This document shows positions 303 through 63,132 of a DNA stretch of 64,000 nt, piece by piece; within the stretch, counting starts at the first letter, position 1; each line of letters begins with the position of its first letter. The stretch is from Candidatus Krumholzibacteriota bacterium (lineage in GTDB: Bacteria > Krumholzibacteriota > Krumholzibacteriia > JAJRXK01): contig CAVXTH010000005.1 of assembly GCA_963764625.1 (NCBI GenBank), forward strand, positions 64,001 to 128,000, written 5' to 3'. Made by a program: the position numbers and the translations under genes. The notes under the pieces were generated by a model. That model was given only the letters and a program-made list of their open reading frames with translations. It searched no databases and was not told the DNA's origin.

Positions 303-1070
303 TCAATCAGAGCCCAAGAGCTTCTGGACGCTCGACGGGATGCCGCTGGGAGAGGGCTTGCGCCCGAAGTCCACACACACGAGTTCGTCCTCGGTCAGCA
401 GCGGAGGCGGAGAGCCCGGTTGCGCCTCGGCAGGAGCAAGCTCGGTATCCACCTTGGAACGCAAGAGTCCGAAGATGGGCACCGCGGAGGAGATCTGGGC
501 CACCGCCACCGCCTGATTGCGGTACACCATGTCGCCGCGTCCCATCCTCACTCTCACTTCCCGGACTTCCTCCAGACGCACTTCCTCACGCGCGATCGTT
601 CTTTCGGAGATGAGGGTGTCCGGCAGGGCCTGACGCTCGACGGTGGGATTTTCGAAGAGGTCCTGAAAATGCCGTTTCAAAAGACGGTTGGTCTTCAGGT
701 TCTGAAGGTCTTGCTCCTCTACCGCCTCGCCGGGGAGAATCTTGAACACTCTGCGCAATCCGTCGAGGAGATCTCCCTGCCGCAGCGTGTCCAGGGGAGC
801 CACGAGCAAGACGTACGATTCCGCCTCATCCAAGAACTTCAACCCGATCCAGTGTTCCCCCTCGTCGGTCGCGGCGAGGACCTCGCAGCGGAGGCTCTCC
901 TTGGTCTGCTGACCCTCGGCCGTCTCGGTGCTCTGAAATTCCGCCCACGATCCCGGGCGAAGGTCGAGTTCGATGAGACCGCGGTGCCACCAGGAGAAGA
1001 TTTCCTGGGCGCGGCAGGGGCTAGCGCCGGCCAGAACGAAAAGCAGGAGAGTGGTTAGGACCCAGCGCAT
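303..1070 (-). CDS. Hypothetical exported protein
   Basis: ATG at 1070 gives a signal-peptide-like MRWVLTTLLLFVLAGASPCRA; the upstream part of ORF 303..1490 overlaps the cytochrome gene and is not used. Confidence 0.7.
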   Translation of the reverse strand: MRWVLTTLLLFVLAGASPCRAQEIFSWWHRGLIELDLRPGSWAEFQSTETAEGQQTKESLRCEVLAATDEGEHWIGLKFLDEAESYVLLVAPLDTLRQGDLLDGLRRVFKILPGEAVEEQDLQNLKTNRLLKRHFQDLFENPTVERQALPDTLISERTIAREEVRLEEVREVRVRMGRGDMVYRNQAVAVAQISSAVPIFGLLRSKVDTELAPAEAQPGSPPPLLTEDELVCVDFGRKPSPSGIPSSVQKLLGSD

Positions 1071-1156
1071 CGTCGATCGTTTTCCCCCCAAGAGCGAAAC
1101 GAACGCCCGGAGAGCCGAGTCTCCGGGCGTGGAAAGGGAAAGCACCCGTCGATTCC

Positions 1157-2518: not shown

Positions 2519-2701
2519 TTCCATCCTCCACGGGGAGTACAAAAGGGGCCCATACTTGCGCGGGTGAGCCGTCATGATACCAAGAGAATACCGCTGACCG
2601 CAATCTCGGCCTTGGATTGCCCGCCGGCAGCTCCTTCTCCCGGCCAGGACACCCGCCCGGTTTGAATGCCTGGACCACGCGTCAGGTTCCAAAATAGACC
2701 A

Positions 2702-13831: not shown

Positions 13832-13894
13832 GGCAGCTCCTGGATGAGGCTCTGGAAGAGAAGCTAGGTCAATTCAGTGCGATCCACTCGTTTA

Positions 13895-16448: not shown

Positions 16449-16578
16449 GATGATTCTCCCCGATGGCTTGCGTTGCGGCGGGAGCTGGGGTATGAAGACC
16501 CCTGGCATCCACTCCGCGCACCAAGCTAGCCGAGGGCGGTCCGCCCAAGCAAGAAATCATCGAAAGGAAGGGCCCCGC

Positions 16579-21275: not shown

Positions 21276-23434
21276 TCAGCTCTGCGGTTTGGCGAAGATC
21301 GCGAGATCGATCTTCGGATTGAGCTCGATGCTCTGTGTATCCACTGTCATGAGGGGTTCGCCCCCATGCGTCACCGACACCTTTTGCGGGAAGAGAATTC
21401 CGCCGTAATCCTTCCAATCGCTGAAAGTGGATTCCTGCAGACCCATCGTTTGCGTGATCATGTGCTTCGCCATGTCCGCCTGCTTGAGGGGCATGTGCGA
21501 AGTGGGGTCGAAGTAGAGTTTGACCCACTTTTTGTCACTCAGCCACACGAGCACCACGTCGGCGTTCGCATCTCCCACTTTCTCGGCGGGTAGAGCTTGA
21601 AGCTGGAAGGAATCGAAGTGTCCCACGATGTAGTGGACGTCTTCGATGATTCCCTCGCGCTGCTTCGCTGCCTGCTCCCCCCCACGTCCTGAATTCCCTG
21701 CGGTCCCTTGGCCCAAGCTCCGTCGGCGGACACGGCCTGCACCATGTCCCCCATGGGCATGTTGATTTCCACCCGTGAGCTGCTCGGGTAGAGAGTCCAG
21801 CTCTTCAGGCCGATTCCGATGGTCATACCCTGCACGCTCAGGCTCGCCTTGTCCTCGCGGTGAATGCTCTTTAGCTTGGAGAGTTTCTCTCCGCCCAAGG
21901 CCTTCTTCGCGGCCGCGAGAATGGAGCGACCCTTCTCGATCGTCTCCGCGGTTGGCTCGGGGAACTCGGGACCTTTCGGCTCGGGGATACTGATATCCAG
22001 ATTCTCGACCGGGCCGAATTCGGTCAGATCTCCATCCCACTCCGAGGTCTTCCCCACCGCGACGATGGCGAAATCCTCCGGATGGATGCGGCGCTGGGCC
22101 ACGTCCTCCACGTTTTTCGCGGTGACGGCGCGGACCTTGTCCGGGTACTGCTCCAGGAAGTCGCTGGGGTAGCCCAGGAACTCGTAGGTCTGCAGACGCC
22201 TCAGGGTCTGGCTCTTCTGAACGAAATTGAAGACATAGGAATTGAGCATGGCCTCCTTGGCCTTACTCAGCTCGTCCGGGCTCACTTCAGAATCACGGAT
22301 CTTGTCGATCTGCTGCAGAACCGCCCCCAGGGCCTTGTCCACCGTGGAGTTCTTGGTCCCGCAGTACGCCATGAAGGCGCCCTCGTGGGCCATTCCCACG
22401 CCCGGCGCGCTCCCCACGGAATAGGCCAGCCCCAGGTTACTCCTCACCTCGTTGAACAACCGGGACGAGAAGCCTCCCCCCAGGATTCGATTCATGACGA
22501 TCATCGAGTAGTAATCGGGATCGTCCATCTTCATGCCGATCTGGCCCGCCGCGAAGTAGCTCTGGGTCACGTCGTCCTTGTTGGCGACCAGCACCTGGCG
22601 CGCCTGCGCCTTGGGCACCTTGGGCAGAGGAGGCACCGGATTGTCGACTCTCGGCCAATTCTCGAATTTACCCTTGAGCTCGTCGAGCATCTGGGCCGAG
22701 TCGAAGTCCCCCCACACCGCGAGCATCATGTTCTCGGGGTGATAGAAGTACTGGTAAAAATCCACGAGGTCGTCGCGAGTGATCGCGTCGATGGTCGCGT
22801 ACTCGGTGTTGCGCGCGTAGGGGTGCTCGGGTCCCCAAATGGCCTTGGGGATTTCCCGGCGCAGAATCGACATGAGTTCGTCGTTGCGCCGCGCGATGGA
22901 GGCCCGCTGCGAGGTCTTGGCCAGGTCAATCTTGTCGTCTTCGAATGCGGGATGCTGCAGAACGTCGCTCACCAGCTCCAGCCCGCGCTTGGCATCCTTA
23001 CGCAGGAAGGAGAAGCTCACGGTGCCCTCCGTGTCGTCGACTTCGCTCTCGATCGAGGCGCCCATGCTCTCGAGCAACTCATCGAGATCGTCTCCGCTCA
23101 TGGTCTCGGTTCCGCCGGTCCGTAGGACTTCGCCCTCGATCTCGGCCAAGCCGACTTTCGCGGCGGGTTCGTAGACCGAACCGGTCCGGATCAGGACACG
23201 GCCTTCGACCAGCGGCCACTGGTGGTCTTCCATGAGATAGATGACCATGCCGTTGGCCAGTTCGTGCCGCTGGTAGTTGGGCACCTCCACCTTTCCCAGT
23301 TCGGGAAAGTGGAAGTTCTCCCACGGCTTCTTCGCCGCCTGGGCGTCGGCGACGCAGAGCGCAAGCAGAAGGGGAAAGAGGGCGGCCACGGCAAGCGCGG
23401 CCGATAGGCTCCGGCTTACTCTAGCTCGCATCAT
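21276..23434 (-). CDS. M16B peptidase non-catalytic subunit with a C-terminal extension (one frameshift)
   Basis: LANGM, GGGFSSRLF.EVR..LGLAY, no HxxEH; reading switches frame at the 7-G run (plus-strand C run 21677-21683) into ORF 21276..22040. Confidence 0.82.
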
Positions 23435-24935
23435 CGGCTCCCTTCTCCTCGGTCACGATGGTTCCGACGGTCAGATTCTTCTCGATCAAGTAGGTCTTGC
23501 ACAGCCGAGAGAGGTCGTCGAGCGTCACCGTGTCGACTTCGCTGGGATAACTGAGGGCTCGCTCCCAGTCTCCCAGGATGACCTGCGCACTGCACAGAGT
23601 CCGCGCCATGCCGGTGTTGGACCGCACCTGGCGGATCCAATTGGCTTTCAGCCGCGTCTTGGCCCCCTCGAGTTCCTCGGCGGTGATTTCACCAGACTTC
23701 ACTTTCTCGATTTCCTTCAGAATGCTGCTCTCGCACTGTGCCGCGGTGTACCCCTTGGCCGGCACCGCGAAGGTCAAGAAGAGCCCGGGGTAGAGTTGAC
23801 CCGGGAACCCGGTGAAGGCGCCAACGCTCACCGCGGACTTCTCGTCCTTCACCAGCTCCTTGTACAGGCGGCTGCTGCGGCCGTTGGCCAACACTTCGGT
23901 CAGCACGTCGAAGGCCGCGTCATCGGGGCTCGAGGCGGCCGGCTTGTGGTAACCCATGATCAACAGCGGCTGGCCTGGATCCTCCAGGGTCACGGTGCGT
24001 TCGGCGATCTGCGGCGGCTCGACGGTGCGAACCGGCTCGGGAATCTTTTCCGCCTTCCACGGTCCGAAATACTTCTCCGCGAGCGACTTCACTTCCTTGG
24101 GATCGACGTCGCCTGCGAGACAGATGACGATATTGCCCGGCACGTAGTACTTCGCATGGAACTTGAGCGCGTCGTTGCGCGTGAAGGCCTCGAGATCGCT
24201 CATGTGCCCCACGGTGGGCTGGCCGTAGGGATGGGCTTTGTACGCAGTGGTGATGAATTCCTCGAGGAGACGGCCGAAGGAACTCGACTCGGTACGCATG
24301 CGCCGTTCTTCCTCCACCACGTCGCGCTCCTTGTAGAATTCGCGCAGAATCGGGTGGATGTAACGCTGCGATTCCAGGTAGGCCCACAACTCCAGCTTGT
24401 TGCTGGGAAGATTGTAGAAGTAGGTGGTCACGTCCGACTGGGTGCTGGCGTTCAGACCGGTGCCCCCAGCCTGCTCCACGATGCTTCCGAACTCGTTCTT
24501 CACCACGTACTGGTCGGCGGCATCCTCGGCCGCCTTCATCGCATCTTTGGCCTTTGCCACCTCTTCGTCGGAGGCCCCGCTCAGCTTGGTTTGCCACCAA
24601 GCCGCTTGGGCCTCGTCCACGGCGTCGAGCGCCTTCTTCTCTTTGGAGTAGTTGGTGGTGCCGATGATGTCGGTACCTTTGAACGCCATGTGCTCGAACA
24701 TGTGGGCCAGGCCGGTGATGCCGGGAACTTCGTTCACCGACCCCACTTTGCACATGGACACGTAACTGAACACGGGCGATTCGTGGCGTTGAACCACGAT
24801 GAATCGCAGGCCGTTATCCAGTGTGAAGGTGGAAATGTTCTTCTCGAGCTCGGCGGTGTCTTGGGCCAGGGCCGAGACAGCACCTTGCGCCAAAACCGTC
24901 AGCAAGAGAAGACAAGTCAGGAGTGCGCGTCGCAT
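23421..24935 (-). CDS. M16B zinc peptidase catalytic subunit (secreted)
   Basis: Signal peptide; GLAHMFEHMAFKGT (HxxEH), NASTQSD.T.Y, ERDVVEEERRMR. Confidence 0.92.
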   Translation of the reverse strand: MRRALLTCLLLLTVLAQGAVSALAQDTAELEKNISTFTLDNGLRFIVVQRHESPVFSYVSMCKVGSVNEVPGITGLAHMFEHMAFKGTDIIGTTNYSKEKKALDAVDEAQAAWWQTKLSGASDEEVAKAKDAMKAAEDAADQYVVKNEFGSIVEQAGGTGLNASTQSDVTTYFYNLPSNKLELWAYLESQRYIHPILREFYKERDVVEEERRMRTESSSFGRLLEEFITTAYKAHPYGQPTVGHMSDLEAFTRNDALKFHAKYYVPGNIVICLAGDVDPKEVKSLAEKYFGPWKAEKIPEPVRTVEPPQIAERTVTLEDPGQPLLIMGYHKPAASSPDDAAFDVLTEVLANGRSSRLYKELVKDEKSAVSVGAFTGFPGQLYPGLFLTFAVPAKGYTAAQCESSILKEIEKVKSGEITAEELEGAKTRLKANWIRQVRSNTGMARTLCSAQVILGDWERALSYPSEVDTVTLDDLSRLCKTYLIEKNLTVGTIVTEEKGADDAS

Positions 24936-50673: not shown

Positions 50674-52023
50674 CTAGAGGTCGCCGGGAAGGCTGTTGCT
50701 CTCGCTAAGAGTCAGGCCCCGCGCGAGCACATCATCCACCTCTTCCACAATCCGGTTGGCCTCGCCGCCGTCGTCGATCCCGTCCAGGTCGCGGCTCTTG
50801 TCCTTCTCGACGCTCTGGCGCTCGAAGGCCGCGATTTCTTCGGCCGTCATCACTCCCGACTCCTTCTCGAACACGAACTCGTCGATGTAATCGACCGTGA
50901 TGAGGTCTCCGCGCACGACTTGGCCGCTCGAGATGAGGTGGCCGATGGGAGTCACGAGCTTGCTCTCGACCGCTCTCCGCAAAGGGCGCGCTCCGAAGCG
51001 CGGATCGTGACCTTCCTCCACCAAGCGCTCCTTCACCTTGGCGCTGACGCGCAGGAGAAAGGGCTCGGTGCAGCCGATGCTGCGGATGTGAATGTCGGCG
51101 ATGAGATTGTCGAGAATCTGGTAGAGATGGGATTCCTTCAGAGTGTCGTAGGTGATCAGCTCGTCGAAGCGGTTGAGGAACTCGAAGGGGAATGTCTTGC
51201 GGGCCTCGTGCAACGCGGCCTCGTGAACGTCTCGGTCCAGCCTCTCCTCGTCGCTGCCGTCGTAGAAGCCGATGTCCTGATGGGAGAGATGTTTGCCCAT
51301 GGCTTCGCTGCCCACGTTGGTCGTGAGCACGATGATGCTCCGGCGGAAATCGACCTCTTCGTTGTTCCCCAGGACCAGGGTTCCGTCCTCGAGAATCCCC
51401 AAGAGCATGCTCCAGAGTTTGGGATGGGCCTTCTCGATCTCGTCGAAGAGAACGAGCGAGAGCCCTCCCTCGTCGTCCTGCAGATGGGAGCCGCCCAGGC
51501 TTTCCTGGAACAGACCCAGACCTTCCTCCAGCGCCTTCTTGTGGTGTCGACCGAGGTTCTCCTTGCAGAGCAGGGGTTTGATCTCACCCCCGACGTAGCC
51601 CGGAGGACTCCCCAGGAGCTTGGAGAGGTTGTAGTGGGCGGAGTACTCCTGACAGTTCACCCGGGTGAAGGCCTTGCGGCTGCCGAACAGGGCCTCGGCC
51701 AGACAGCGAACCGTCTCGGTCTTACCCACTCCGGTCGGGCCCAAGAGCATCATGGTGAGGATTGGACTCTCCGGATCGTGAATTCCCGCCAGCAGACGCG
51801 AGAAAGAGTTGGTGACGGTTTCCAGCGCGCGTGGCTGGCCGACCACCATCTTCTGCATGAGGTCGTGGAACCGGGCGAGTTGGGGATTGCGCTGGCTCGG
51901 ATCGAGCCGGACGCGGTCGTGAACAACGGGGCAGCGTGCCGGTTGGGCCAAGGGAATCTCCTCCAAAAGGGCGGTCGAGCCGCAGTCGCTGCTTCCTCGC
52001 CCCCCCGGCGCACGAAGCGACAC
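50674..52023 (-). CDS. Stand-alone ClpA/B/C second-AAA-domain (D2) ATPase
   Basis: VVGQ..A, GPTGVGKTE, LLGSPPGYVG, LVLFDEIEKAH, EFLNRFD, FGARPLRRAV; no N-domain or NBD1. Confidence 0.85.
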   Translation of the reverse strand: MSLRAPGGRGSSDCGSTALLEEIPLAQPARCPVVHDRVRLDPSQRNPQLARFHDLMQKMVVGQPRALETVTNSFSRLLAGIHDPESPILTMMLLGPTGVGKTETVRCLAEALFGSRKAFTRVNCQEYSAHYNLSKLLGSPPGYVGGEIKPLLCKENLGRHHKKALEEGLGLFQESLGGSHLQDDEGGLSLVLFDEIEKAHPKLWSMLLGILEDGTLVLGNNEEVDFRRSIIVLTTNVGSEAMGKHLSHQDIGFYDGSDEERLDRDVHEAALHEARKTFPFEFLNRFDELITYDTLKESHLYQILDNLIADIHIRSIGCTEPFLLRVSAKVKERLVEEGHDPRFGARPLRRAVESKLVTPIGHLISSGQVVRGDLITVDYIDEFVFEKESGVMTAEEIAAFERQSVEKDKSRDLDGIDDGGEANRIVEEVDDVLARGLTLSESNSLPGDL

Positions 52024-52351
52024 TCTAGGTACTCCAAGGACATGCAGGATAAAGACCGGAAGCGACTACCCGCGCCCTGCCCCTGCGCCACCCTGTCCAC
52101 CCTCGGAGAATCGCGCCATAGAAGGCGAGGAAGGGCTCGCCTCCACGAGGAATCATGAGGACGGCAAAACCCCCAGACCACCGCGAGCTAGGGCCGTAGG
52201 GTACGAAACGAGGGGGCAAAATCGGGGTGTTTTCTTCAGTGTCCCCCTCGCGATCCGCGGCCTGGAGGCTTGCAAAAGGAAAGGGAGTCTCGCATCGCGG
52301 CAAGACTCCCCTGGTGAGAATTCAGCCTGGTGGTAGGTGGTTCGAAGGCCC

Positions 52352-54031
52352 CTATTGCAGGTCCAGATCCTGGAGATACGAAGCGCGGGTTCCCCCCACA
52401 TCCTCCTTGAAACGATCGTCCGAATGAGGGGACACCGGCGAGTGGGCCTTGATGTAGTCTGACAGGGCCTCGCGGGTGAGCATGCCGGTGTAGTTGACCT
52501 TGTCGGGGGGGATCTCGGCCAAGAAGTCCAGGCCGCTGTTTCCCTCCATCAGGAAGTCGCTGGTGATGACCTTGTATTCCTTCCCCGGCACGACGGGAGT
52601 GCCATCGACCAGAGTGAGTTGGAGCACTCGCTTGCCGAGGGGCGCATCCGGATCGACCACTGCCTTCACTCCGCTGTAGGCGATCCCGCTGCTGTTCCGA
52701 CCCGTCTTGCGCTCGAAGATGCGGCGGATCATCGAGCCGTCCATCTGTACCGTAGCCAGGGCGTTCCCGAAGGGAAGCACGCGCATCAGGTCTCCCTCCG
52801 TAATGCGGCCCACGGAGAGATCCGAGCGCAGCCCTCCCAGGTTCGTGAAGGAGAAATCGCCGTCCTGGGCCTCGAGCATGGCCGAGGTCACGAGGATCCC
52901 CATTCGCGAGAGCGGACCACCGTTGCGCGAGAGCTCCACCGCCGAGCGGCCCACCGTCTTGTCCAGACCCTTGCGGGCGTCCGCCACGTAGGGAGCCAAA
53001 TCGTCCGCCATTTCGGGGTCCGGCCAGTACTGATCCTCGAAGAGCGTAATGAGAGTTCCGTCGCGGCGCGGGCTCTCGTACCCCATGAGCTGCTTGGTCG
53101 CGCGGTCGATGAGGAGCACCACGTGTCCGATGGAGGAGCCGTTCCCGAAGGTCTCGAAGACCATCGCCTGCGTCACCGGATCGATCCACGGCTTGCGGTA
53201 TCCACGGTGAGTGTGACCGCCGATGATGACGGGGACTCCCGTGACCACGTGTGCGATGGCCATGTCACCCTCTGCATCGTGCTCGAGATCGTCGCCGGCC
53301 TTCACCCTCTTCTCGAGCTGTTTCCAACCGGTGTCGGGATCGTACGGCAAGCCCTCGTGGATGAGTGCGAAGACCATGTCGACGTGTTCCTTGTTCACCA
53401 GAATGTCACGGTACTTTTCGAGCGCGGGAGGAATAGGGCGGAAATCCAGACCCTTCACGTTCTCATCGAAGGCCATCGATTTGGTGGCGGGAGTGATGGC
53501 GCCGATGATCCCGATCTTGAGGCCGGCCTTCTCCACCACGCGATACGGCACCACCCAGTCGACGAGCTCGTCCGTACCCTCCTTGTAGATGTTGGCGCAG
53601 ACGAACTTCTGATTCATCGCGGCAGACATGCGAATGGGAACGTCCTTGCCCTTGTCGAATTCATGGTTCCCCACCGTGACCGCGTCGTAGTGCATGGTGT
53701 TGAAGTAGGTCTCCATGACCTTGCCCTTGCTCAGAGTTCCCACCGGAGCTCCCTGCCAGGTGTCACCCGCGTCGACCAACAGAACGGCCTGGTTGGGATC
53801 GTGGCTGGCTTCCGCCCTCACTTTCTGTACGTAGGCCGCCGCCGCCGCGCCACCGCCCAGAGGAGGCGGAAAATCGGGGCTCATGAAGCGCGCCGCCTCG
53901 GGCCCGACGTGACCGTGGATGTCGTTCGTCCACAACAGATTCAGACGGATCATCCCGTCGTTCTCGGCCCGCGCGACCGGCGCGAGAAGAGAGCAAAGGG
54001 CGAGGATGAGAAAAAGCGTTTTGGCTCGCAT
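52352..54031 (-). CDS. Secreted 5'-nucleotidase/bifunctional metallophosphoesterase (UshA family)
   Basis: Signal peptide; intact TNDIHG, DAGD, GNHEFD, GGHTH; C-terminal N.GGLR..L, LPFGN. Confidence 0.92.
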   Translation of the reverse strand: MRAKTLFLILALCSLLAPVARAENDGMIRLNLLWTNDIHGHVGPEAARFMSPDFPPPLGGGAAAAAYVQKVRAEASHDPNQAVLLVDAGDTWQGAPVGTLSKGKVMETYFNTMHYDAVTVGNHEFDKGKDVPIRMSAAMNQKFVCANIYKEGTDELVDWVVPYRVVEKAGLKIGIIGAITPATKSMAFDENVKGLDFRPIPPALEKYRDILVNKEHVDMVFALIHEGLPYDPDTGWKQLEKRVKAGDDLEHDAEGDMAIAHVVTGVPVIIGGHTHRGYRKPWIDPVTQAMVFETFGNGSSIGHVVLLIDRATKQLMGYESPRRDGTLITLFEDQYWPDPEMADDLAPYVADARKGLDKTVGRSAVELSRNGGPLSRMGILVTSAMLEAQDGDFSFTNLGGLRSDLSVGRITEGDLMRVLPFGNALATVQMDGSMIRRIFERKTGRNSSGIAYSGVKAVVDPDAPLGKRVLQLTLVDGTPVVPGKEYKVITSDFLMEGNSGLDFLAEIPPDKVNYTGMLTREALSDYIKAHSPVSPHSDDRFKEDVGGTRASYLQDLDLQ

Positions 54032-54096
54032 GACTTACTCCTGGGGGTGTCCACTGATCATGGGCTTCGTCTGTTCTGTCCCACAAGATAGTAAAG

Positions 54097-55469
54097 CTAG
54101 AAGCTCCGCGAGACCCCCAAGAGAAGGGTCACCATCCCGTCTTCCACTTTCGAGAGGCTCGTCGGCGCCGCGTCGTCCGGGCGATCGGTCCACTGGTAGG
54201 GTTCGATCGAAAATGAAGGCCTGCCGGGAGGTTTGCCGGTGATACTGGAGCGTCACGTCGATCTGGTAATCCGCGGCCTTGTAACCAACTCCGCCGGAGA
54301 AGATCGACCGATTCGACTCGGGATCGGCGTAGTTCTCCAGATAACGGAATCCGAAGCGGGCCGGCACGTTGTTGTAGAAGACGTGTTCCAGACCAAAGCG
54401 CACGTCCCAGGTGTTCGCGGAGGGAACGCTCTGCGAAATGAAGGCCGCGGTCCGATAGCTGTCCGCGGCGATGCCTTCCCAGAAACGGCGCACCACGTCC
54501 ACCGAAAACACGGTGGCCAGTTCATTGCGGGGGCGATAGGTGAGACCGGCGCGGAGCGTGCCGGGGTACTTGATCTTCACGTCCTCACCGCCCACCGGCA
54601 TGACAACCATGCTCTGGTCGTAGGGCATCCACGACTCCGACCGTCGAATCGAATCGAGAGGTGATCGCTCCCTCCACCGTGAACGGCGCCTCGAAACTGG
54701 CACCGAGATCCAACCGCTCGTTCACCGTCCCCGAGGCCCCCACCGTGATTCCCCAGCCCGAGAGCTCGTGCTCGAACGCGGCCGAGCCCGGATCGCTGAG
54801 GAAATTACTCTGATAGATGGGGGTGGTGAGCGTGTTGGCCCGGTGCTTCAGCTTACCGAAATAGCGGTGGACGGTGAGCCCCAGGCGAAGCCGTGGCACG
54901 AGCTCCATGCCGTAGCCCACCGAGATGGAGCGCAGATGCCCTTCGATCTTATAGTCCCGCAGTTGAATCACCGCGTCGCGCGTATCGACGTAAGGTGAAG
55001 GATCACGGATCTCTTCGGAATAGTCGTAGTTGAAGCTGTAGCGGTCGAAGATCCCGATTCCCAGGGTCATGTTTCTCTCCGGCGAGAGCCGGTAGATGGC
55101 CCCTCCCTGTCCGAGACCGTAGCTGTTGCGATTGCTGGCCACGGTGGTGTCGGTGAGGTAGGAGTTGAAGGAGTCGAAGAGCGGTTGGAACCGGTCTTCG
55201 TTGGCCTGCAAGATGCCACCGTTGACTTCGAGCAAAAGGCGGCCGTCCATCTGCGAGAGCATCGCCGGGTTCGCCACCAGACTGGCGCTGCCCAGGTAAA
55301 GTGCTGCGCCCACCGAACCCATGGCTGCCGCCCGCGGTGTGGTGGCCGCGAAAGGCGTTCCAAATGCCGCGTCCAGCGTGGTGAATGCCACCGCCGGATG
55401 AACTGCCGCTACTTGCACCAGTAGAACCAGTGCTAGGACAAGTAGGCTTCTGCGAATCGTGCCACGCAT
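54097..55469 (-). CDS. FadL/PorV-like outer-membrane beta-barrel (two frameshifts)
   Basis: Signal peptide, PRAAAMG...NPAML N-terminal motif, alternating beta strands; frame changes near 54630 and 54185 give the C-terminus KVEDGMVTLLLGVSRSF-stop (54097-54099). Confidence 0.72.
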
Positions 55470-55479
55470 GGGATACTCC

Positions 55480-58047
55480 CTAGAAGTTATAGTCGAGCTG
55501 GAGACGGAAGGCCGTGATTTCACGTTAGTCGCCCGCGCAGAAGTCGCTGGGGACGGAATTGGCGTATTGGCGAAGTTCCAGATTGTCCCGCGTCCGCTGC
55601 CGGTCGTGCGTCATTTTGAATCGTACGAGCATGCTGTCCGATAGCCGACTCTGCACGAGGAACCAGCTGCGAATACCCTGGCCATCGACCGCGATGAACT
55701 CGTTGTCCTCGAAGTTCCACAGAAAGCCGTCGTAGAGCTCCGTGCTCAAAGTGAACTGGAGGCGATCGTTGACATTGTGAACCAGCATGCCCTGGATGGC
55801 CTGACTGGGGCTGGCGGCTTGAGCCAGAGGAGTGAAATTGCTGCCATCGGGAACGGCCGGGCCGCTCAGGCGCGGACGCGGCGCGAAACTGTGTTGGTGT
55901 TGCTGTAGAGCAGGCGCAGTTCGTCGTAGGCCGTCAGGCGCCCGCGGACCTCGAAGCGTGAATCCCAGCTCTTGAAGCGCCGATTGTCGAAGAGTTCTTC
56001 AGAGGCGCGATCGCTGTAGCGCTGTCGCACGCGGAACCGTACTGGCCACACCGGTGCATACTCCACGCGAAGCGTGTAGCGGCGCTGGCTCTGGCTATCC
56101 GCCTTGCGCACCCACTGGTCGAATTCCAGACCGGAAATGGTGATCTGCCGGCTGATGCGGTAGCGCGTCTGCAGGAAGATGCCACGTTCGGCCTTGGTCT
56201 GTGGGCTGCTCGTCTCGAGCCAGGAATAGAGCGGAGAATTCAGGCGGAACGGATCGGAGAGCAGGGTCTGTCCGTAACGGTTGTCCTCGCCGAACGGCCG
56301 CGCGTAGGGATTGTCGAAGCCCACGTCGTAATCGCGGTAGAGGGCAAAGAGACTCAAGTTTTCGAACTGCGTATAGCCGGTGAACACCATGGCGTCCGGA
56401 GCATTGGAAAGGATGCCGCCATTGGGGTTCGAATCGAGTTTCGCGTATTCCCCCTGGAGAGCCACGTTGTCCACTACGGTCTGGAACTCGGCTCCCACCA
56501 CGCGGCGGAACTTGCCCAGTTGCATGGAGTCGTAGGCATTGAACAGTTCGGAATCCCTGCCGTCCAAGAGATCGGTCCGCGCCACCAGAGTGTTGACATT
56601 GGGATCCCAGGGGAGGTTGTGGTGCGCCTCGTAGCCGGAGAGACCGACGAAAGTGCCGGGCATGATCTCGTAGCGCAACAGGCCGCCGTAGAGCGTTTCA
56701 TCGAATGCACCGCGGCGAATGCCGCTTCCCATCTGCTCGTACTCGTCGTTCTCGAAGCGCGGACTCCCCACGATGTACTTGTTGATGCTCACCGCATCGC
56801 CGTTGGCATCGAAGTTCAGAATCCCGTCCTTCTTGGATCGCTGACGAAACCCAGGAACTGGAAATTGCCCAGCGAAGCCTCGGCCGCGGCTCCTCTGAGA
56901 GCGAACTCGTAGGAACGACTCATGTCCCCCAGGAGTCCCTGCGGGCGCTTGTTGAAGCCCGTCTCCAGTTTTGCGGGCTCAGACAGTAGTCGGTGTTATC
57001 CATGACCAAGCCCTGGCCGAACGCGACCCGAAAATTCCCCAGCACCACTTTGTCGAGCTGGAATCTCTCGGCGTTCTGGTTGCGCCACTCCAGGAAGTAC
57101 TTGGCGGTCTCCGCCAGATTGCGTTCACCCACGTCGCGGAAGGTGCTCACTCCCGCCTTCCACTGCAGCCCCATCCGCAGCCTCAGCTTGGTCAAAACCG
57201 CCGGGTTGGGGCTGTCCAGATGTTTGATCCCATAGGGAGTCTCCTGGTCGAAGATCGGATTCTGGGCGAGGGCATCCGCGGGATGAAAGGTCTCCGTCAG
57301 CACGTCCTTATCATTCAGCAGATAGGGCGTATTGAAGGTCTGAAGCTGCATGCTGCCGTGGAGCTTCAGGTCCGATTCCGGTGGCTCATAGACCACGTAA
57401 TCGCGGAGATTCCGGAACGCCCAGTAGTTCAATCCGTCTACGCTTCTCAATTGGCGCTCGCCTTGGATTTCCCCAGAACGCTCGCGCGCCTTGATGATGG
57501 CGGTCGCGTCCACCGGGGAGACGTTCTGATAACTCTGCAGATCGTAGAGCGAGAGATCGTTGATGTTGCGCGGCTCGAGCAACTGATCACGATACTCGTC
57601 CGCCAACTCTTCACTCGCCCCTTCCTGGCTCAAGAACCGTTGCAGTTGCCGGAACGATTCGTCGTAGCGACGCACCCAATCTTCCTGGGTCTTGGGCGGC
57701 ATCGTCGCGACGAGTGGCAACAGTTCCTTGATCATGGCCGGCGTGACGCCTTCGACGTGTCGCAAGTCGTAGATCGAGGAGAAATAGCTGCGGTAGGTGC
57801 GGTACTCGTAGATGGCGTCGGCTACCTCGGCGGGAATCGGCAGCTTCTTCAGCTGCTCCCGGGTCGCCCGGTTGAGGTCGAGCTTTCCCTGACTCAACGA
57901 TTCGTCGGTCTGGATTTTGCTGGCCTCGATGGCTTCCCGCCGCGAGTCACCCTGTTCGTACTGGGCATGAGAACTCGCCACGGGCAGCAGGCAAAACGCC
58001 GCCGCCAGGAGGAGTCCGCGCCGGATGCTCTTGCGCGGAGCGTTCAC
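55480..58047 (-). CDS. Outer-membrane protein with two ComEA-like helix-hairpin-helix domains (multiple frameshifts)
   Basis: Signal peptide; KLDLNRATREQL..LP...ADAI.EYR and a second HhH RNINDLS..DL; GNFRVAFGQGLVM; fragments 56920..58047, 55866..56792 and 55525..55788 join by frame changes; ends FRLQLDYNF-stop at 55480. Confidence 0.72.
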
Positions 58048-58048
58048 G

Positions 58049-58963
58049 CTACTCCCCCCCTCCCGAGAAGCGATAGCTCAGACCGAATTGATGCGTCGAT
58101 TCGAGAATGCCTCCACCGGTGGAGAAGGCGTAGTCGAGGGTCGCGCCGTGAAAGTGCACCCCAAAGCCGGCGCAGAGCTTGTTGGGATCGGTTTGCAGAC
58201 CCGCCCGGAGATCGAGCACGTCGAGAATGCCGAACTCGGCTCCGCCATGGACGCGAAACTCCTCGCCCACGCGACTGCGGATGTCGAACGCGGTGGTGAC
58301 CTGCTCGTAGGGCTGGTAGCTCACGCCGATGGCCACCTGTTGGATGAGCTCTTCGCTGTCGTCACCGATCGTGGGATTGTTGATGTTCTTGGCGATGAAA
58401 CCGATCTTGGTCCGGTCCCACACCTCCACGATCCCGGAGATGTCCAGACCGGTGGCCCAGGCGTTTCCCGGGTCGATGCCGTTGCTGCCGTCACCCGCCA
58501 GACCGATGCTCTGTCCGAAATCGAGATTGTAGAAGTTCAGAGTCCACCCGACGGCCGCGCCAGAGGCATCGTCCTTGAAGAGCTGGAATCCATTGGAGAT
58601 GGAAACCGTATATTCGCTGAGCAAGCTCGTGCCTTGATTCTCGACTCCCAGGTGCCGAAGGCCGATGGCCACGCCACCCCAATTGCCCGGTAAGGGCATT
58701 GCACCCCCGACCGTGGAGAGTCGGTTGTAGCTGCCGTTGTTGGGCTCGGCCGTCGCCACCGCGGCTTGCGGTGTCGTCATCCAGGGCAACAGCGCGGGGT
58801 TGTTGTAGAAACTCCAAGCATCACCGTCGACGGCCACCACGGCTGAACCCATGGCACGCGCGCGCGGGCTCACGGCCAGATCGTCGAACGCGGCCCAAGT
58901 GCTCGTCGCGACGAGCAAAAACAGCGGCAACAGCAGGAGAATCGGAGTTCGTTTCGCTTGCAT
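58049..58963 (-). CDS. PorV/PorQ-like outer-membrane beta-barrel protein
   Basis: AGGAGG RBS, signal peptide, SPRARAMG...YNNPALL, LDLRAG, LDYAF, THQFGLSYRF. Confidence 0.8.
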   Translation of the reverse strand: MQAKRTPILLLLPLFLLVATSTWAAFDDLAVSPRARAMGSAVVAVDGDAWSFYNNPALLPWMTTPQAAVATAEPNNGSYNRLSTVGGAMPLPGNWGGVAIGLRHLGVENQGTSLLSEYTVSISNGFQLFKDDASGAAVGWTLNFYNLDFGQSIGLAGDGSNGIDPGNAWATGLDISGIVEVWDRTKIGFIAKNINNPTIGDDSEELIQQVAIGVSYQPYEQVTTAFDIRSRVGEEFRVHGGAEFGILDVLDLRAGLQTDPNKLCAGFGVHFHGATLDYAFSTGGGILESTHQFGLSYRFSGGGE

Positions 58964-58976
58964 TGAGCCGTGCCTC

Positions 58977-61900
58977 CTATCGATCCAGGCGTGACGCCAC
59001 GACCACGGGCATCTGCTTTTCGTTGGATCCGTTGCTCCCGGTCGAGCGCGTCTGCAGGTGAGCCACGTAAGCGCCAGCCGGTACGAACTCGCCGAATTCA
59101 TCCGTGCCATCCCATTCGATAGTTGCCCGGTTGTCGTTGAATACCGAGTCGAGGGGTTTCACTCGGCTGTCGAATAAGGTCTTCACAAGGGTCCCATTCA
59201 TGTTGAAGATTCTCAGGATCACTTCACCGTTTTTTGCGATGAGATCGGAGCTGAGGTTGATCGTCAGCGGATAGCGCTCGCCATCGCGCGGAAGGAAGGT
59301 GAAGGGCGGCCCGTCCAGAGTAATGGCGTCCACCAGGAGAGGTGCGAGAGCCGCGGTGATCCCCGGGGCCGCGATGGCGTTTCCATTTAGATCCGCCACT
59401 CCGCTCACGCGTACCGACCAGTTCTCCTCCAGTCCCAAGTTGCGATCGAGGTTGAGCCGGATCCGGGTGGTCGATCCAGAAACGAAAGCGGCGCCGGTCA
59501 CCCCGGCGGTTTCCGAGGGAGAGTTCGTCTGGAACACCTGGTAATTGCTGGAGTTCGTCGCGGAACTCGCTTCGACTGCTTCGCTGAAGTCGATGATCAC
59601 CGTCGAGGCGGTCTCCAGGCTGGCTCGGTCGATCCTGGGCGGCGAGGTGTCACCGGCCTGGCCTTCGAAGATGTCGCTCACCAACCCCACGTTGACCTGA
59701 TAGGTGCTCCCGAACAATCCACCCGCGCCGCGCGCGGTGATCGTGGTGCCCGTGGTGAAGGTGGGCGCATTGAGCGTATCCACCACGCGGACGTCGATCG
59801 GACCCGAGCCGTCGTTCACCGTATAGTTCACGCCGGGGCCTGCGACCGCCTGCGCGGTGATCGGTCCGGAGATTTCGATGAAGGTCCCTTCCCAGTTGTT
59901 GCTGGCCGCCGCACCGGTGGAGAGCTGCGCCGCCGAGGGCCGCGGATTCCCGCCCGACAACAGCGTCACTTCCGTCGGATTTTCGATTTCGACGGTGGTG
60001 AAGTACAGAGAGACCGTTCCCGTCACGCGCACCGCATTCCCTATGGTGCGCGCGGCCGCCACGCCGAAGCCATTGCCGAAGAGATTGATCCCCCTGCCGG
60101 AGGAATCCTGAATGTACCCGGAGGTGGTCGTCCCGCGGTAATCGCTGGGGATGTACACCACGCCTTCCACCGTGACCACTTGACCGTCGTAGTTCGCGGG
60201 ATTGGCCTGGATGGTGGCGATGGGAGTGGCATTGGAGGTGGTGTAGGTGAAGACGGCGGTGTTGCTGCCCGCGATCAGGTTCCCCGCCAGATCTTTTACG
60301 TTGCTCACCGAAACGGTGTAGGAAGTGTCCTCGGTCAGGGAGGACGAGAGGCTCAGCGTGACGTGGCTCCCGTTGAGGGATGCGCCGTTCACCGCGATGG
60401 TATTGGCGGGAGTCGAGGTCTGGAACACCTGGTAGTTGCCCGCGGTCTGGGCCGTCGTGGTATCGAGGGATTCGTTGAAATTCACCGTGACCGAAGTGGC
60501 TGACGAAGCGCTCGCGCCGGTGACGGTGGGCGGAGTGGTGTCGACTCCGCCTCCGGTGGACACGTCGCTGACCAGACCCACGAGCACTTGAAAGTCGGGA
60601 CTGAACTCTCCACCCGCTCCGCGCGCGGTGATGGTGGTTCCAGTGCTGAAGCTCGGCGCGCCCAGAGTATCGACGATCCTGACCACGATCGGTCCCGATC
60701 CGTCATTGACCGTGTAGTTGGTCCCCGGTCCGCCGACTGCCTGCGCGGTGATGGGACCGGTGACCTCGATGAAGGTTCCCTCCCACTGCGAGTTGGCCGC
60801 CGCGCCGGTGGAAAGTTGCACTGGTGAAGGCCGCGAATTGCCGCCCGACAGGACCGCCACTTCTGTGGGATTGGCGATCTCGACGGTGGAGAAGTAGAGG
60901 GAGACGGTGCCAGTCACCCTGATCCGATTTCCCACGGTCTGCGCGGCCGGAACGTCGAAGCCACTGCCAAAGACATTGATGCCGCGACCCGAAGAATCCT
61001 GGATGTAGCCGGAGATGGTGGCGCCACGGTAGTCGCTGGGGATGTACACCACGCCCTCCACCGTCACCACTTGACCGTCGTAGCTGGCGGGATTGGCTTG
61101 AATGTCCGCGATGGAAGTGGCGGAAGAAGCGCTAAAGCTGAAGGTCGCCGTATTACTGGTGCCAATCACACCGCCCTGCGTGTCCTCGACATCGGCCACC
61201 TCGACGGTGTAGCCCACTCCGTCGCTGAGCGAAGAGCCCAGACTGAGGGTGACGCTGGAGGTCGCGGCGCTCACCCCGACCACGCTCAGAGGACTTCCTG
61301 GCTGCGCGGTGGGATAAACCGTGAACGACCCCGGGTCGCTCGCGCTGGCCGCGTCGATCGCTTTGTTGAAATTCACTACCACGGTGGTGGCGTCGCTGGC
61401 CGAGGCATCGCTGACCGCGAGTTCCACCGGCCCCGCGGTGGAGACGTCGGAGAGGGCGCCCACGAGCACCTGGAAAGTGGTGGAGAAGGCCCCTCCCGCG
61501 CCACGCGCGGTGATCGTGGTGCCGTTGCTGAAGCTGGGCGCGCTGAGGGTGTCCACCACCCGTACGTCGATCGGGCCCGAGCCGTCGTTGATCGTGTAGT
61601 TGATACCGGGTCCGGAGACCGCCTGGCTCACGATGGAGCCGGTCACCTCGATGAAGGTGCCCTCCCACTGCGAATTCGCCGCCGCCCCGGTGGTGAGTTG
61701 GACCGGTGAAGGCCGCGGATTGCCGCCCGACAGGACCGCCACTTCGGTGGGATTGGAGATCTCGACCGTGGTGAAGTACAGAGAGACGGTGCCGGTCACC
61801 CTGATCCGGTTGCCCACGGTCTGCGCGGCCGGAACGTCGAAGCCGGTGCCGAAGAGATTGATGCCGCGACCCGAGCTGTCCTGGATGTAACCGGAGATCG

Positions 61901-62399
61901 TGGCGCCGCGATAGTCGGACGGGATGTACACGGTGCCTTCCACCGTGACGACCTGCCCGTCATACGCGGCCTCGTTCCCTTGAATGTCCCCGATGGGTGT
62001 GGCGGAGCTGCCTCCCCCGCTGGCGGTGAAATCCATCGACGGCGCGCCCGAGATGGCTTGGCCGGTGGTGTTCTCCACGTTCTGCACCCGCATCGTGTAG
62101 ACCACGCCACCGGTCAGGGGGGTGGAGAGAGTGATCGTCACCGTTGCTTGTGACACCGCTGCGTTCGAGAGAGTGGGGCGGTTCCCCGTGTTGTCCTTCT
62201 CGAAGAGGAGATAGTTAGCGACCGTCTCGCCGGTCACGGGGTCGATGTTCTCGGAGAAGGTCACGACCACCGTGGACAGGTCGGTGTTCTCGACAGAGAC
62301 CAAGGTCGGCTGCGCCGCCGCGGTCGTGATGCCCAACGCGAGAAGAATCCAAAGGCTCGAGGCGGCCATGGTCATGGCCATTCCCAGTTTGCGTCGCAA
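58977..62399 (-). CDS. Secreted surface protein: alternating Ig-like (Big_5/SbsA-like) and OB-fold repeats with a C-terminal FlgD-type Ig sorting domain
   Basis: Signal peptide; 4 Ig-like units (VVVTFSE.ID...NY) alternating with 3 units PI..IQ...GQVVTVEG.V...YIQDSSGRGINLF...WEGTFIEV; C-terminal LRIFNMNGTLVKTL...WDGTDE.G..VPAGAY. Confidence 0.8.
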   Translation of the reverse strand: MRRKLGMAMTMAASSLWILLALGITTAAAQPTLVSVENTDLSTVVVTFSENIDPVTGETVANYLLFEKDNTGNRPTLSNAAVSQATVTITLSTPLTGGVVYTMRVQNVENTTGQAISGAPSMDFTASGGGSSATPIGDIQGNEAAYDGQVVTVEGTVYIPSDYRGATISGYIQDSSGRGINLFGTGFDVPAAQTVGNRIRVTGTVSLYFTTVEISNPTEVAVLSGGNPRPSPVQLTTGAAANSQWEGTFIEVTGSIVSQAVSGPGINYTINDGSGPIDVRVVDTLSAPSFSNGTTITARGAGGAFSTTFQVLVGALSDVSTAGPVELAVSDASASDATTVVVNFNKAIDAASASDPGSFTVYPTAQPGSPLSVVGVSAATSSVTLSLGSSLSDGVGYTVEVADVEDTQGGVIGTSNTATFSFSASSATSIADIQANPASYDGQVVTVEGVVYIPSDYRGATISGYIQDSSGRGINVFGSGFDVPAAQTVGNRIRVTGTVSLYFSTVEIANPTEVAVLSGGNSRPSPVQLSTGAAANSQWEGTFIEVTGPITAQAVGGPGTNYTVNDGSGPIVVRIVDTLGAPSFSTGTTITARGAGGEFSPDFQVLVGLVSDVSTGGGVDTTPPTVTGASASSATSVTVNFNESLDTTTAQTAGNYQVFQTSTPANTIAVNGASLNGSHVTLSLSSSLTEDTSYTVSVSNVKDLAGNLIAGSNTAVFTYTTSNATPIATIQANPANYDGQVVTVEGVVYIPSDYRGTTTSGYIQDSSGRGINLFGNGFGVAAARTIGNAVRVTGTVSLYFTTVEIENPTEVTLLSGGNPRPSAAQLSTGAAASNNWEGTFIEISGPITAQAVAGPGVNYTVNDGSGPIDVRVVDTLNAPTFTTGTTITARGAGGLFGSTYQVNVGLVSDIFEGQAGDTSPPRIDRASLETASTVIIDFSEAVEASSATNSSNYQVFQTNSPSETAGVTGAAFVSGSTTRIRLNLDRNLGLEENWSVRVSGVADLNGNAIAAPGITAALAPLLVDAITLDGPPFTFLPRDGERYPLTINLSSDLIAKNGEVILRIFNMNGTLVKTLFDSRVKPLDSVFNDNRATIEWDGTDEFGEFVPAGAYVAHLQTRSTGSNGSNEKQMPVVVASRLDR
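59668..62003 (-). repeat. Three intragenic direct repeats of the OB-fold module (about 560 bp cores, about 885 bp period)
   Basis: Near-identical segments at about 61441-62003, 60560-61120 and 59668-60230 (e.g. YIPSDYRG..SGYIQDSSGRGIN in each). Confidence 0.85.
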
Positions 62400-62661: not shown

Positions 62662-63132
62662 CTAGAAGTGTTTGGCCTCGACCTCGCGCAGAGCGGCGAT
62701 GACCGAGGCGGGAGTATCGGCGGCACGGAGCGCCGCGAGGAAAGAGTCGATGCGTAGCAGTTTGGAGATCCGCGCCAGGACCCTCAGTTGCTGTCCCGGG
62801 AGTTCGCGCGACCCCACCAACAGGAAGACCAGATCTACGGGTTCGCCGTCCACGGCGCCAAACTCGATGGGTTCGGCCAGATGGGCGATCATGACCACGC
62901 TGCCCGCGAGCTGATCGCTGCGGACGTGGGGAAGAGCCATTCCTCCTCCGATCCCGGTGGACTCCATCTCCTCCCGGGCCAGGATGGCCTTGAGCAGGAC
63001 CTGAGGATCATTGATGCGTCCGAGCTCTCCCAACCGGTCGACGAGGACTTCCAGACACTCCCCTCGATTCGCCGCTTTCAGAGAGGCGAAACAGAGCTCG
63101 GGGGAACAGTAGTTGAGGAGTTTCATCACCAT
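62662..63132 (-). CDS. PTS EIIA (Ntr/fructose-type) domain protein
   Basis: REEMESTGIGGGMALPHVR, FGAVDGEPVDLVFLL, LRVLARISKLL. Confidence 0.9.
   Translation of the reverse strand: MVMKLLNYCSPELCFASLKAANRGECLEVLVDRLGELGRINDPQVLLKAILAREEMESTGIGGGMALPHVRSDQLAGSVVMIAHLAEPIEFGAVDGEPVDLVFLLVGSRELPGQQLRVLARISKLLRIDSFLAALRAADTPASVIAALREVEAKHF

Follow-up and report, generated by a model that had tools for sequence, protein, structure and literature searches.

Sediments and soils store much phosphorus, nitrogen and carbon in the form of extracellular DNA. The known means by which this DNA crosses the bacterial outer membrane are the pilus-secretin machines of competence and, more recently recognised, the TonB-dependent Ddb and Riemerella systems. 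In competence, ComEA, which is either free in the periplasm or anchored there to the membrane, gathers on DNA and works with the PilQ secretin. Shewanella grows on DNA with an extracellular nuclease, ExeM/NucH, and a periplasmic UshA-type nucleotidase. In the type IX pairs SprA-PorV and PorZ-PorQ/PorU-PorV, a small FadL-type barrel binds the C-terminal domain of a surface protein. This article presents a five-gene operon, g1 to g5, located in a 64,000-nucleotide stretch of DNA (the window) from a Candidatus Krumholzibacteriota bacterium (assembly GCA_963764625.1, contig CAVXTH010000005.1, positions 64,001 to 128,000), whose third gene encodes two ComEA-like helix-hairpin-helix (HhH) domains fused to a large predicted outer-membrane barrel. 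The operon is real, strongly conserved and thematically coherent, and it appears to be a variant system for nucleic-acid utilisation in which one outer-membrane component is of a new kind. No published account of an HhH-fused barrel or of this operon was found in the literature searched, which took in PMC11495043 and PMC12478041 without their supplements.

Among described systems, the nearest in concept is the ddbABCDEF locus for DNA utilisation in Bacteroidales (Sharan et al., PNAS 2025, PMC12478041). According to that article, ddb combines three nucleases with DdbC, which is a TonB-dependent transporter, and a DUF5689 lipoprotein, and the DUF5689 protein DdbD has a p202-HIN-like fold and partners the TonB-dependent barrel (PMC12478041). 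Measured against that description, the two loci share a HIN-like tandem-OB surface protein (DdbD there, g1 here) beside an actual or putative outer-membrane transporter, enzymes that digest nucleic acids or would do so, and secretion signals by which the parts are sent either to the surface or to the periplasm. They differ in that Pfam scans of the five operon proteins gave no TonB-dependent, Plug, SusCD or pilus match, DUF5689 was not found in the window's genome (G000, 96% complete), and the window's operon holds no nuclease. In further contrast to ddb, the binder here is predicted to be a type IX-like-tailed cargo carried on a PorV-like barrel rather than a lipid-anchored protein, the putative channel bears ComEA-type domains, and the conserved enzyme is a 5'-nucleotidase.

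A second precedent is the pilus-independent transformation of Riemerella anatipestifer, which involves RA0C_RS04920, RA0C_RS04915 and RA0C_RS02645 (PMC8459023). According to that report, transfer of DNA across the outer membrane without a pilus requires three proteins together, one that binds DNA at the surface, one that forms an outer-membrane barrel and one with HhH domains, much as is proposed below. The Riemerella HhH protein is separate and its barrel is of the TonB-dependent type, whereas the operon joins its HhH domains to an unrelated barrel in one protein and is linked with a nucleotidase, not with competence genes. In the available text of a survey, Krumholzibacteriota are mentioned only as carriers of secreted nucleases (PMC11495043).

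The five genes of the operon are as follows:

58977-62399, minus strand: g1, secreted surface protein, 1140 aa
58049-58963, minus strand: g2, PorV/PorQ-like outer-membrane barrel, 304 aa
55480-58047, minus strand: g3, two ComEA-like HhH domains plus barrel; frame-broken as assembled
54097-55469, minus strand: g4, FadL/PorV-family outer-membrane barrel; frame-broken as assembled (455 aa in the congener G002)
52352-54031, minus strand: g5, intact 5'-nucleotidase/UshA-YfkN-type phosphoesterase, 559 aa, with an N-terminal signal peptide

All are co-oriented with spacings of 13, 1, 10 and 65 nt, which recur without change in the intact copy of G002, and the operon stretch has a G+C content of 60-65%. 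An earlier description made from the letters and open reading frames (ORFs) of the window, here called the sequence-only reading, had listed an OB-fold/Ig-repeat surface protein, a PorV-like barrel, an outer-membrane protein with two ComEA-like HhH domains, a FadL/PorV-like barrel and an intact secreted 5'-nucleotidase, at these same gaps and without TonB, SusCD or pilus genes. The gene calls, domain scans and folds presented here agree with that list; what it left unmentioned is that g3 and g4 are broken in frame. Intact orthologues, such as those of G002, were used for the biology of these two genes.

The g3 protein is about 860 aa long and mostly barrel (orthologue open frames run from 843 to 992 aa). 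Its two HhH domains lie at the N-terminal end:

~57721-57891, minus strand: g3 HhH domain 1, HHH_3
~57394-57567, minus strand: g3 HhH domain 2, HHH_3

The match to HHH_3 (PF12836) reaches 61 bits in two stretches at a cut-off of 27, and both stretches are over the cut-off in a scan of the organism's own genome. Scores against ComEA subfamily models fall short of theirs (TIGR01259, 48.9 bits for a cut-off of 152.35; TIGR00426, 30.3 for 53.1). An AF2 (AlphaFold2) model of the G002 orthologue, built from 48 sequences (pLDDT 78.9, pTM 0.77), places the HhH domains at residues ~55-215 and a barrel of ~24-26 strands at residues 229-860. HhH domain 1 of the model (residues 53-116) superimposes on the ComEA structure 8dss_B with a Z-score of 11.6 and a root-mean-square deviation (rmsd) of 1.4 Å over 64 aligned residues at 30% identity, and in sequence the tandem HhH region aligns with the double-HhH N-terminus of EEPD1 (E 7e-4). 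As in the ComEA-PilQ pathway, ComEA-type HhH domains would stand where DNA would enter the periplasm, and a binding ratchet is a plausible driving force; unlike in that pathway, two domains are tethered to each barrel, their hairpins are partly degenerate, and the locus has neither pilus nor secretin.

The best VIA-align matches of the barrel itself are the 24-strand usher pores FimD and PapC (Z 14.3 and 14.2, with 372 and 369 residues aligned, rmsd ~5 Å and ~10-11% identity), although no match stands out above other large barrels and the likeness to ushers is one of barrel size alone. The usher Pfam family has no match in g3 or in the other operon proteins, and a Foldseek search with the whole g3 model returns generic large barrels only, at TM-scores of 0.2-0.3.

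Conservation of the operon was followed at three depths. The order PTS-g1-g2-g3-g4-(X)-g5-Clp, in which X is an occasionally inserted gene and PTS and Clp are flanking genes, is held in 13 of 13 relatives' loci. Among 72 Krumholzibacteriota loci drawn from species-representative genomes, scoring for each gene only those loci with enough flank, g2 is present in 69/69, g1 in 64/64, g4 in 61/61, g5 in 51/51 and the full set of five in 49/49. A more distant set of 80 metagenome loci, found by alignment of distant members at ~30% identity, retains g2 in 53/53, a g1-like gene in 36/50, g4 in 44/65, g5 in 30/39 and all five in 18/34; some of these misses may be due to sequence divergence. The synteny search that the sequence-only reading had proposed as a check thus shows strong co-conservation of the five genes. 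The PTS and Clp flanks were not detected beside g3 in the distant loci, and for this reason the five genes are regarded as the conserved core, with g2-g3 as its invariant centre. Downstream DNA was examined for g4 and g5 in eight distant exceptions (L126, L143, L162, L180, L188, L198, L199 and L201); where sizeable downstream ORFs are present in these, they are housekeeping genes or encode a ~400-aa protein without a Pfam match, and no recognisable g4 or g5 was found.

A word-indexed search collected 374 members of the g3 family at E <= 1e-3, nearly all of 740-900 aa with HHH_3 as their sole Pfam domain, and a profile search of 1.84 billion cluster representatives returned 152 at E <= 1e-30. 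Named distant full-length members belong to WOR-3, Edwardsbacteria, Fermentibacteraceae and one metagenome-assembled genome labelled Elusimicrobiota. One distant member of the family, P0183 (1251 aa), has a 430-aa N-terminal extension of TPR repeats before its HhH domains.

Within the class, g3 was found with one query in 17 of 41 genomes (7/9 in family f1, 7/7 in f2, 2/6 in f3 and 0/18 in other families), and the module is therefore an accessory system rather than a housekeeping one. Strong g4 matches fall in the same 17 of the 41 genomes; at E <= 0.001, 22 of the 41 have no g4 match and 2 more have weak ones only. Strong g5 orthologues (E <= 1e-96) are confined to the 17 g3 genomes and G031, so that g5 accompanies g3 in 17 of 17 genomes and occurs in 1 of the 24 without it. 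Within a single genus, G007 has g3, g4 and g5, and G008 and G009 have none of them. G031, a single contig estimated at 86% completeness, carries its g5 orthologue (58% identity) at G031:C1:3523229-3524866; with the queries used it gave no g3 or g4 match, which makes it the sole exception to the co-occurrence.

The g1 protein begins with a signal peptide, continues with four Big_5 Ig-like (immunoglobulin-like) domains that alternate with three tandem-OB units of ~190 aa, and ends in a conserved C-terminal domain (CTD):

61425-62027, minus strand: g1 tandem-OB unit 1, from an alignment of 22 units
60543-61112, minus strand: g1 tandem-OB unit 2
59670-60236, minus strand: g1 tandem-OB unit 3
58980-59309, minus strand: g1 C-terminal domain (~110 aa), from an alignment of 22 sequences

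In Pfam, Big_5 scores 104 bits in four stretches, and there are weak matches to the OB families tRNA_anti-codon and DUF5818. An AF2 model of the tandem-OB unit from the 22 aligned units (pLDDT 93, pTM 0.88) consists of two OB folds. Among the roughly 40 PDB matches listed by Foldseek, all are DNA-binding tandem-OB proteins, namely Teb1 AB, the HIN domains of p204, p202, IFI16 and AIM2, POT1, RPA and the Oxytricha telomere protein (E 4e-7 to 5e-5; for the HIN domains of p202, p204, IFI16 and AIM2, E 2e-6 to 4e-5 at TM ~0.4). Each OB half, taken singly, matches nucleic-acid OB folds at Z 10-12.8 and rmsd ~2.2 Å.

The OB module also recalls the ExeM/NucH route of Shewanella, a likeness that the sequence-only reading had pointed out. 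It is partly borne out: the G002 orthologue of g1 matches the ExeM/NucH model (NF033681) over model positions 21-112 only (E 1.4e-16, 60.5 bits for a cut-off of 300), while BLASTP of the OB unit against the genome's own ExeM-like protein reaches a best E of 0.17, which is not significant. As in the ExeM/NucH-UshA pathway, a UshA-type enzyme would finish salvage. In contrast to it, g1 has no Pfam match to an EEP/Exo_endo_phos nuclease domain, the genome's ExeM-like gene lies elsewhere, and the Shewanella pathway has no dedicated outer-membrane channel. The ExeM-like protein in question combines an EEP nuclease domain with an OB region in 551 aa (G000:C4:30921-32372, minus strand; locus L107:262-1917) and shows no obvious signal peptide with the listed start codon.

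The tail of g1, which had been called FlgD-type, is conserved as a domain, and its FlgD_ig match is weak: for the G002 orthologue the matches, both of them weak, are to the PorU C-terminus (E 1.9e-4) and FlgD_ig (E 0.028). This CTD is kept even where the passenger domains in front of it differ. Its likely partner is g2, whose G002 orthologue matches the NCBIfam model PorV_fam (NF033709) at E 1.2e-15 and 58 bits, below the 90-bit cut-off. A model of the complex between the g1 CTD and g2 gives an ipSAE of 0.79, with 0.00 for the best of three controls; 116 of 157 solved complexes attained this mark, as did 2 of 215 mismatched pairs. At least 97% of contacts are the same between runs, partner pLDDT is at least 77, and the prediction supports docking of the g1 CTD on g2, as the sequence-only reading had suggested should be checked. 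That reading had also made g2 a dedicated PorV-like shuttle. The family resemblance stands, below the cut-off as noted, whereas in place of a shuttle g2 looks like a dedicated anchor for the g1 CTD, always paired with g3: the two genes are adjacent in 69/69 Krumholzibacteriota loci and 53/53 distant loci with room for both, and they often overlap or stand 1 nt apart.

Small barrels of the FadL type also work against large ones in BamA-BamG of the Bacteroidota, as described in the available text of PMC12611786. Comparison with SprA-PorV and BamA-BamG makes g2 and g4 distant members of the same barrel superfamily. The differences are that both g2 and g4 score below the curated cut-offs for those families, that g3 is neither SprA nor BamA, that other genes of the genome are better candidates for PorV and BamG, and that the module is missing from more than half of the related genomes searched. 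In the main rival of the nucleic-acid reading, the locus is a display or secretion module without import. Here g3 and g2 would be a small counterpart of SprA-PorV or BamA-BamG that receives and holds the CTD cargo g1, while the HhH domains would serve in the periplasm for docking or as a plug, and the nucleotidase would act on free nucleotides diffusing in. The invariance and close spacing of the g2-g3 pair, the predicted binding of the g1 CTD by g2, the retention of that CTD behind a varying passenger, the loci that consist only of g(1)-g2-g3 and the partial degeneracy of the HhH hairpins all fit such a module. Against it, the genome already has SprA and at least 7 over-cut-off PorV-family genes for type IX export, and a display module leaves unexplained both the tracking of g3 and g4 by g5 across genomes and the recurrence of ComEC-type metallo-beta-lactamase-fold (MBL), OB and lamin-tail (LTD) modules in the locus. 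We regard it as unlikely.

The fourth gene encodes a further barrel. The G002 orthologue of g4 passes the Toluene_X/FadL cut-off (PF03349, 33.3 bits for 29.7), which the broken fragment in the window does not (17.4 bits), and scores below cut-off against PorV_fam (NF033709, E 5.8e-10, 39.3 bits for 90) and BamG (NF053685, E 2.7e-13, 49.8 bits for 250). Identification of g4 as BamG itself was considered and rejected, on the grounds of this score, of a better candidate elsewhere (64.3 + 38.7 bits) and of the fact that g4 is not universal in the class. The best BamG-like match of the genome, at G000:C6:281476-282552, contains one in-frame TGA.

The fifth gene is the enzyme. Its protein passes the Pfam cut-offs for 5_nucleotid_C (111.1 bits for 23.6) and Metallophos (30.9 for 21.5), and its translation legibly contains NDIHGH, GDxxQG, GNHEF and GGHTH, which we take to be the metal-binding motifs. 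Among NCBIfam models it matches PRK09419 (E 5e-74, 249.6 bits for a cut-off of 1646) and UshA (6e-50, 170.5 bits for 600), below the equivalog cut-offs for UshA and CpdB, and its matches include models of UDP-sugar hydrolase, NAD nucleotidase and 2',3'-cyclic phosphodiesterase.

Between g4 and g5, 12 of 51 Krumholzibacteriota loci carry the additional gene X, which encodes a lipoprotein with an MBL fold and a fibronectin-like N-terminal domain. The strongest functionally informative match of X is to the C-terminal MBL domain of ComEC/Rec2 (E 2e-11 and 8e-15 for two proteins), although one of the two scored slightly higher against an MBL-type beta-lactamase model. X was not found in the genus of the window organism. 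Examples of X are found at:

L015:12089-13474
L016:12778-14232
L017:12677-14212
L019:4234-5658, minus strand
L025:13111-14445

The breadth of UshA/CpdB-type enzymes, and the several such models that g5 matches, raise the possibility of a substrate other than polymeric nucleic acid, such as nucleotide sugars, NAD, cyclic nucleotides, teichoic-acid-like polymers or glucans. In such a scheme the OB, LTD and carbohydrate-binding (CBM) modules would serve general adhesion and g3 and g4 would be channels for small phosphoesters; some relatives do have CBM_56 in the g1 slot, and FadL-type barrels usually carry small hydrophobic molecules, as the available text of PMC12611786 has it. A barrel of ~24-26 strands with ComEA-type domains would be oversized for small solutes, however, and nucleic acid is what the ComEC-type MBL, the ExeM-type OB and the HhH domains each suggest. 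Of the alternatives considered here, this is the one to which we give the least weight.

The case for nucleic acid is one of convergence, since the g1 OB/LTD modules, the g3 HhH domains, the MBL domain of X and the g5 nucleotidase are unrelated in fold and stand in one operon across phyla. Each of the four, the OB/LTD, HhH, ComEC-type MBL and nucleotidase domains, has its nearest known relatives in DNA uptake or extracellular nucleic-acid breakdown. On this basis the operon may be read as a TonB- and pilus-independent system for capture of extracellular nucleic acid, its import and nucleotide salvage, a reading whose chances we judge to be about even. From the capture-and-salvage scheme of the sequence-only reading it retains co-conservation, the OB and HhH folds and CTD docking; the shuttle role of g2 and the novelty of the concept have been given up, in the latter case because analogous genes are published for ddb and Riemerella, from which the parts here differ.

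In the proposed mechanism, g1 would be exported, probably by the type IX secretion system of the genome, and held at the surface by its CTD docked on the small PorV/PorQ-like barrel g2. The three tandem-OB units of g1, spaced by Ig-like domains, would bind DNA or RNA multivalently. The gene of g2 is always adjacent to that of g3 and usually translationally coupled to it; g2 would sit beside g3, the two N-terminal ComEA-like domains of which would face the periplasm and the barrel of which would be the passage for nucleic-acid fragments. Binding by the tethered HhH domains, together with downstream hydrolysis, could make entry irreversible. In the periplasm the material would be cut to mononucleotides, by the ComEC-type MBL lipoprotein in some relatives and, in the window genome, where X was not found, by what must be other nucleases. 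The putative periplasmic g5 would then remove phosphate, yielding nucleosides and phosphate for inner-membrane carriers, and the FadL-type barrel g4 would be an accessory partner. Of all this, the order of the genes and its conservation, the identities of the domains and the predicted folds are observed, and the docking step comes from a model; nucleic-acid binding, the orientation of g3, transport and the place of g5 in the cell are inferences.

A bolder form of this proposal is more speculative and, in our estimation, rather doubtful. It holds that g3 is a new kind of outer-membrane nucleic-acid import gate, a ~24-strand barrel with ComEA-type domains at its periplasmic mouth, which reels polymeric DNA or RNA into the periplasm without TonB, pilus or secretin, is fed by a type IX-displayed OB/LTD catcher docked on g2, is common to Krumholzibacteriota, WOR-3, Edwardsbacteria and Fermentibacteria, and constitutes a major route of DNA turnover in sediments and soils. 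If the nucleic-acid reading is right, the operon would add a third way for DNA to cross the outer membrane, made of type IX-style parts and a ComEA-fused barrel and kept across several uncultivated phyla related to the FCB (Fibrobacteres-Chlorobi-Bacteroidetes) group, and it would mark the DNA foragers of these phyla in genomic data. Objects for tests are at hand in the OB units, the HhH domains, the g1 CTD-g2 pair and the g3 barrel.

The rest of the genome supplies both the secretion and the competence background for these proposals. SprA is present over its cut-off, 14 PorV-family matches were found, 7 of which are over cut-off, and the genome also has ComEC, a secretin and a small free ComEA. 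ComEC in the genome and the tethering of ComEA-type domains in g3 invite the idea that the operon is an outer-membrane entry port for natural transformation, at which g1 catches double-stranded DNA, g3 pulls it into the periplasm and ComEC takes one strand. The available accounts of the published systems lend this some colour: transformation of R. anatipestifer depends on an HhH protein and an outer-membrane barrel together with a DUF5689 protein at the surface (PMC8459023), and the DUF5689 protein DdbD resembles p202 HIN (PMC12478041), as does the g1 unit. The partner that the locus has kept, however, is a nucleotidase (51/51 and 30/39 loci), which acts on degradation products and does not preserve DNA; no dprA, comEC or recombination gene is present in the locus; and the genome has its secretin and free ComEA for the usual route. 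We consider a transformation port improbable, more so than a display module.

Several observations weigh against the capture-and-import proposal as a whole. The same ComEC, secretin and small ComEA mean that DNA uptake does not need g3. HhH hairpins usually follow a Gly-x-Gly rule, from which those of g3 mostly depart, with LPIP/GVT in domain 1 and NVSP/GL in domain 2 (read by eye), whereas the hairpins of the genome's own small ComEA are RVG and GVG. HhH folds also occur in the non-DNA proteins GspK and PsbU, which are weaker Pfam matches here, and OB folds are not always nucleic-acid binders, as YgiW, CcmE and the engineered OBody, which also match the OB halves, illustrate. The Foldseek TM-scores of the OB unit are just ~0.4, and the OB unit has no significant BLASTP match in the genome's own ExeM-like protein, as given above. 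The g1 slot varies: in family f2 it holds two lamin-tail domains, sometimes with CBM_56, according to Pfam, and at the distant locus L163 it holds a different FlgD_ig-tailed protein. The favourable CTD-g2 model may partly reflect likeness to solved PorV-type complexes. Some distant loci run from g2-g3 directly into housekeeping genes, and the conservation counts are not independent of one another because the genomes are kin. Lastly, the window's operon holds no nuclease, X was not found in G000 with the one query used, and g3 and g4 are not open frames in this assembly.

The frame breaks were located against the orthologues of G002 and G003, which are single ORFs of 860 and 855 aa for g3 and of 455 aa for g4. 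In g3 there is one extra base near 56975 and another near 56963, and one base is missing near 56837 and another near 55890; in addition, a TAA at 55525-55527 is in frame where the congeners carry a Lys codon. The 14 codons after this TAA, including the C-terminal LQLDYNF, specify the same amino acids as in the congeners. In g4, single extra bases lie near 54632 and near 54194. Programmed frameshifting or another genetic code was rejected as an explanation, as the six separate indels include both insertions and deletions and each congener reads through in a single frame.

The surroundings were surveyed in the same way. The whole window, 1-64000, is collinear with single contigs of G002 and G003 at ~79-80% nucleotide identity. 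Counting indels by blastn at ~79% identity gave hundreds of compensating alignment artefacts, and a protein-level frame-switch test was used instead. By this test 3 genes among 66 conserved ORF queries elsewhere in the window switch frame, and since they are so few, the g3 and g4 lesions are clustered. The three genes that switch frame relative to G002 and G003, at 15189-16572, 21279-23452 and 13328-14444 (all minus strand), probably do so through assembly indels like those of g3 and g4.

Contigs from four public metagenome runs were aligned to 54000-58100. In three of the four runs, the two additional bases, at 56963 and 56975, are missing from related-strain contigs (90-95% alike). Over 55765-55976 and over 56685-56930 there are near-identical contigs, with 0 and 2 mismatches, that exceed the window by one letter each; these extra letters are deduced from record length against window length rather than read directly. 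Contigs spanning 54194 are one letter shorter than the window. The public runs provided no contigs over 54822-55369, and none of the four held a near-identical bridging contig at the TAA of 55525-55527, at 54632 or at 56963/56975. Because contigs of the public runs disagree with the window at these sites, most of the g3 and g4 lesions are probably consensus or assembly errors, and the contig pattern fits consensus errors where several strains co-occur.

The opposite view is that g3 and g4 in this strain are a recently inactivated remnant, with the six indels and the TAA as real mutations. Seven lesions in 3.9 kb would then stand among g1, g2, g5 and both flanking genes, all intact, and just 3 other genes of the 66 in the window switch frame; the TAA, moreover, is a substitution, not the commonest long-read error, and falls where no near-identical contig is available. 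Against a remnant speak the near-identical contigs (0-2 mismatches) that are one letter longer at two deletion sites, the lack of both inserted bases in related strains, the contigs over 54194 that are one letter shorter, the unchanged amino acids of the 14 codons past the TAA, and the occurrence of frame errors elsewhere in the assembly. Real inactivation is thus kept as a minority view, on account of the TAA and 54632, which no near-identical contig bridges. Frameshifts in such genomes deserve to be checked against reads before a pseudogene is called. At G000:C9:993505-1000012, the SprA homologue is divided between two different open frames, of 511 aa and 1888 aa; the break lies between 994185 and 994580 and is possibly a further frame error.

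Outside the five genes, three further features adjoin the operon:

62662-63132, minus strand: PtsN-like EIIA (PTS-EIIA/PtsN-like) flanking gene, by sequence match
52281-52312, minus strand: terminator-like hairpin, a 13-bp stem followed by a T-rich tail, 40 nt past the g5 stop
50674-52023, minus strand: single-ring Clp/ClpB-D2-like AAA+ ATPase flanking gene, by sequence match

The PTS-EIIA/PtsN-like and Clp-like genes stand 262 and 328 nt from the operon. Where the contig reaches, Clp is present in 47 and the upstream EIIA gene in 42 of the 72 Krumholzibacteriota loci. Both genes were considered as members of the system and set aside, their synteny being limited to Krumholzibacteriota and their distances from the operon being those just given. 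Terminator-like sites number 3 in 11.5 kb, against a shuffle mean of 7.9, and the position of the hairpin right after g5 as an operon terminator is suggestive only. A promoter scan of the operon, restricted to the sigma-70 type, found no sigma-70-like site.

At the far end of the window, a gene at 1055-2692 (minus strand) encodes a UshA-like metallophosphoesterase; a TGA stands in frame within its PCGU motif, and towards the C-terminus there are four haem-binding motifs (CxxCH). The product of this gene is likely a selenoprotein of the 'UshA_like_PCGU' type, and paralogues with exactly one in-frame TGA are found in ~20 related genomes.

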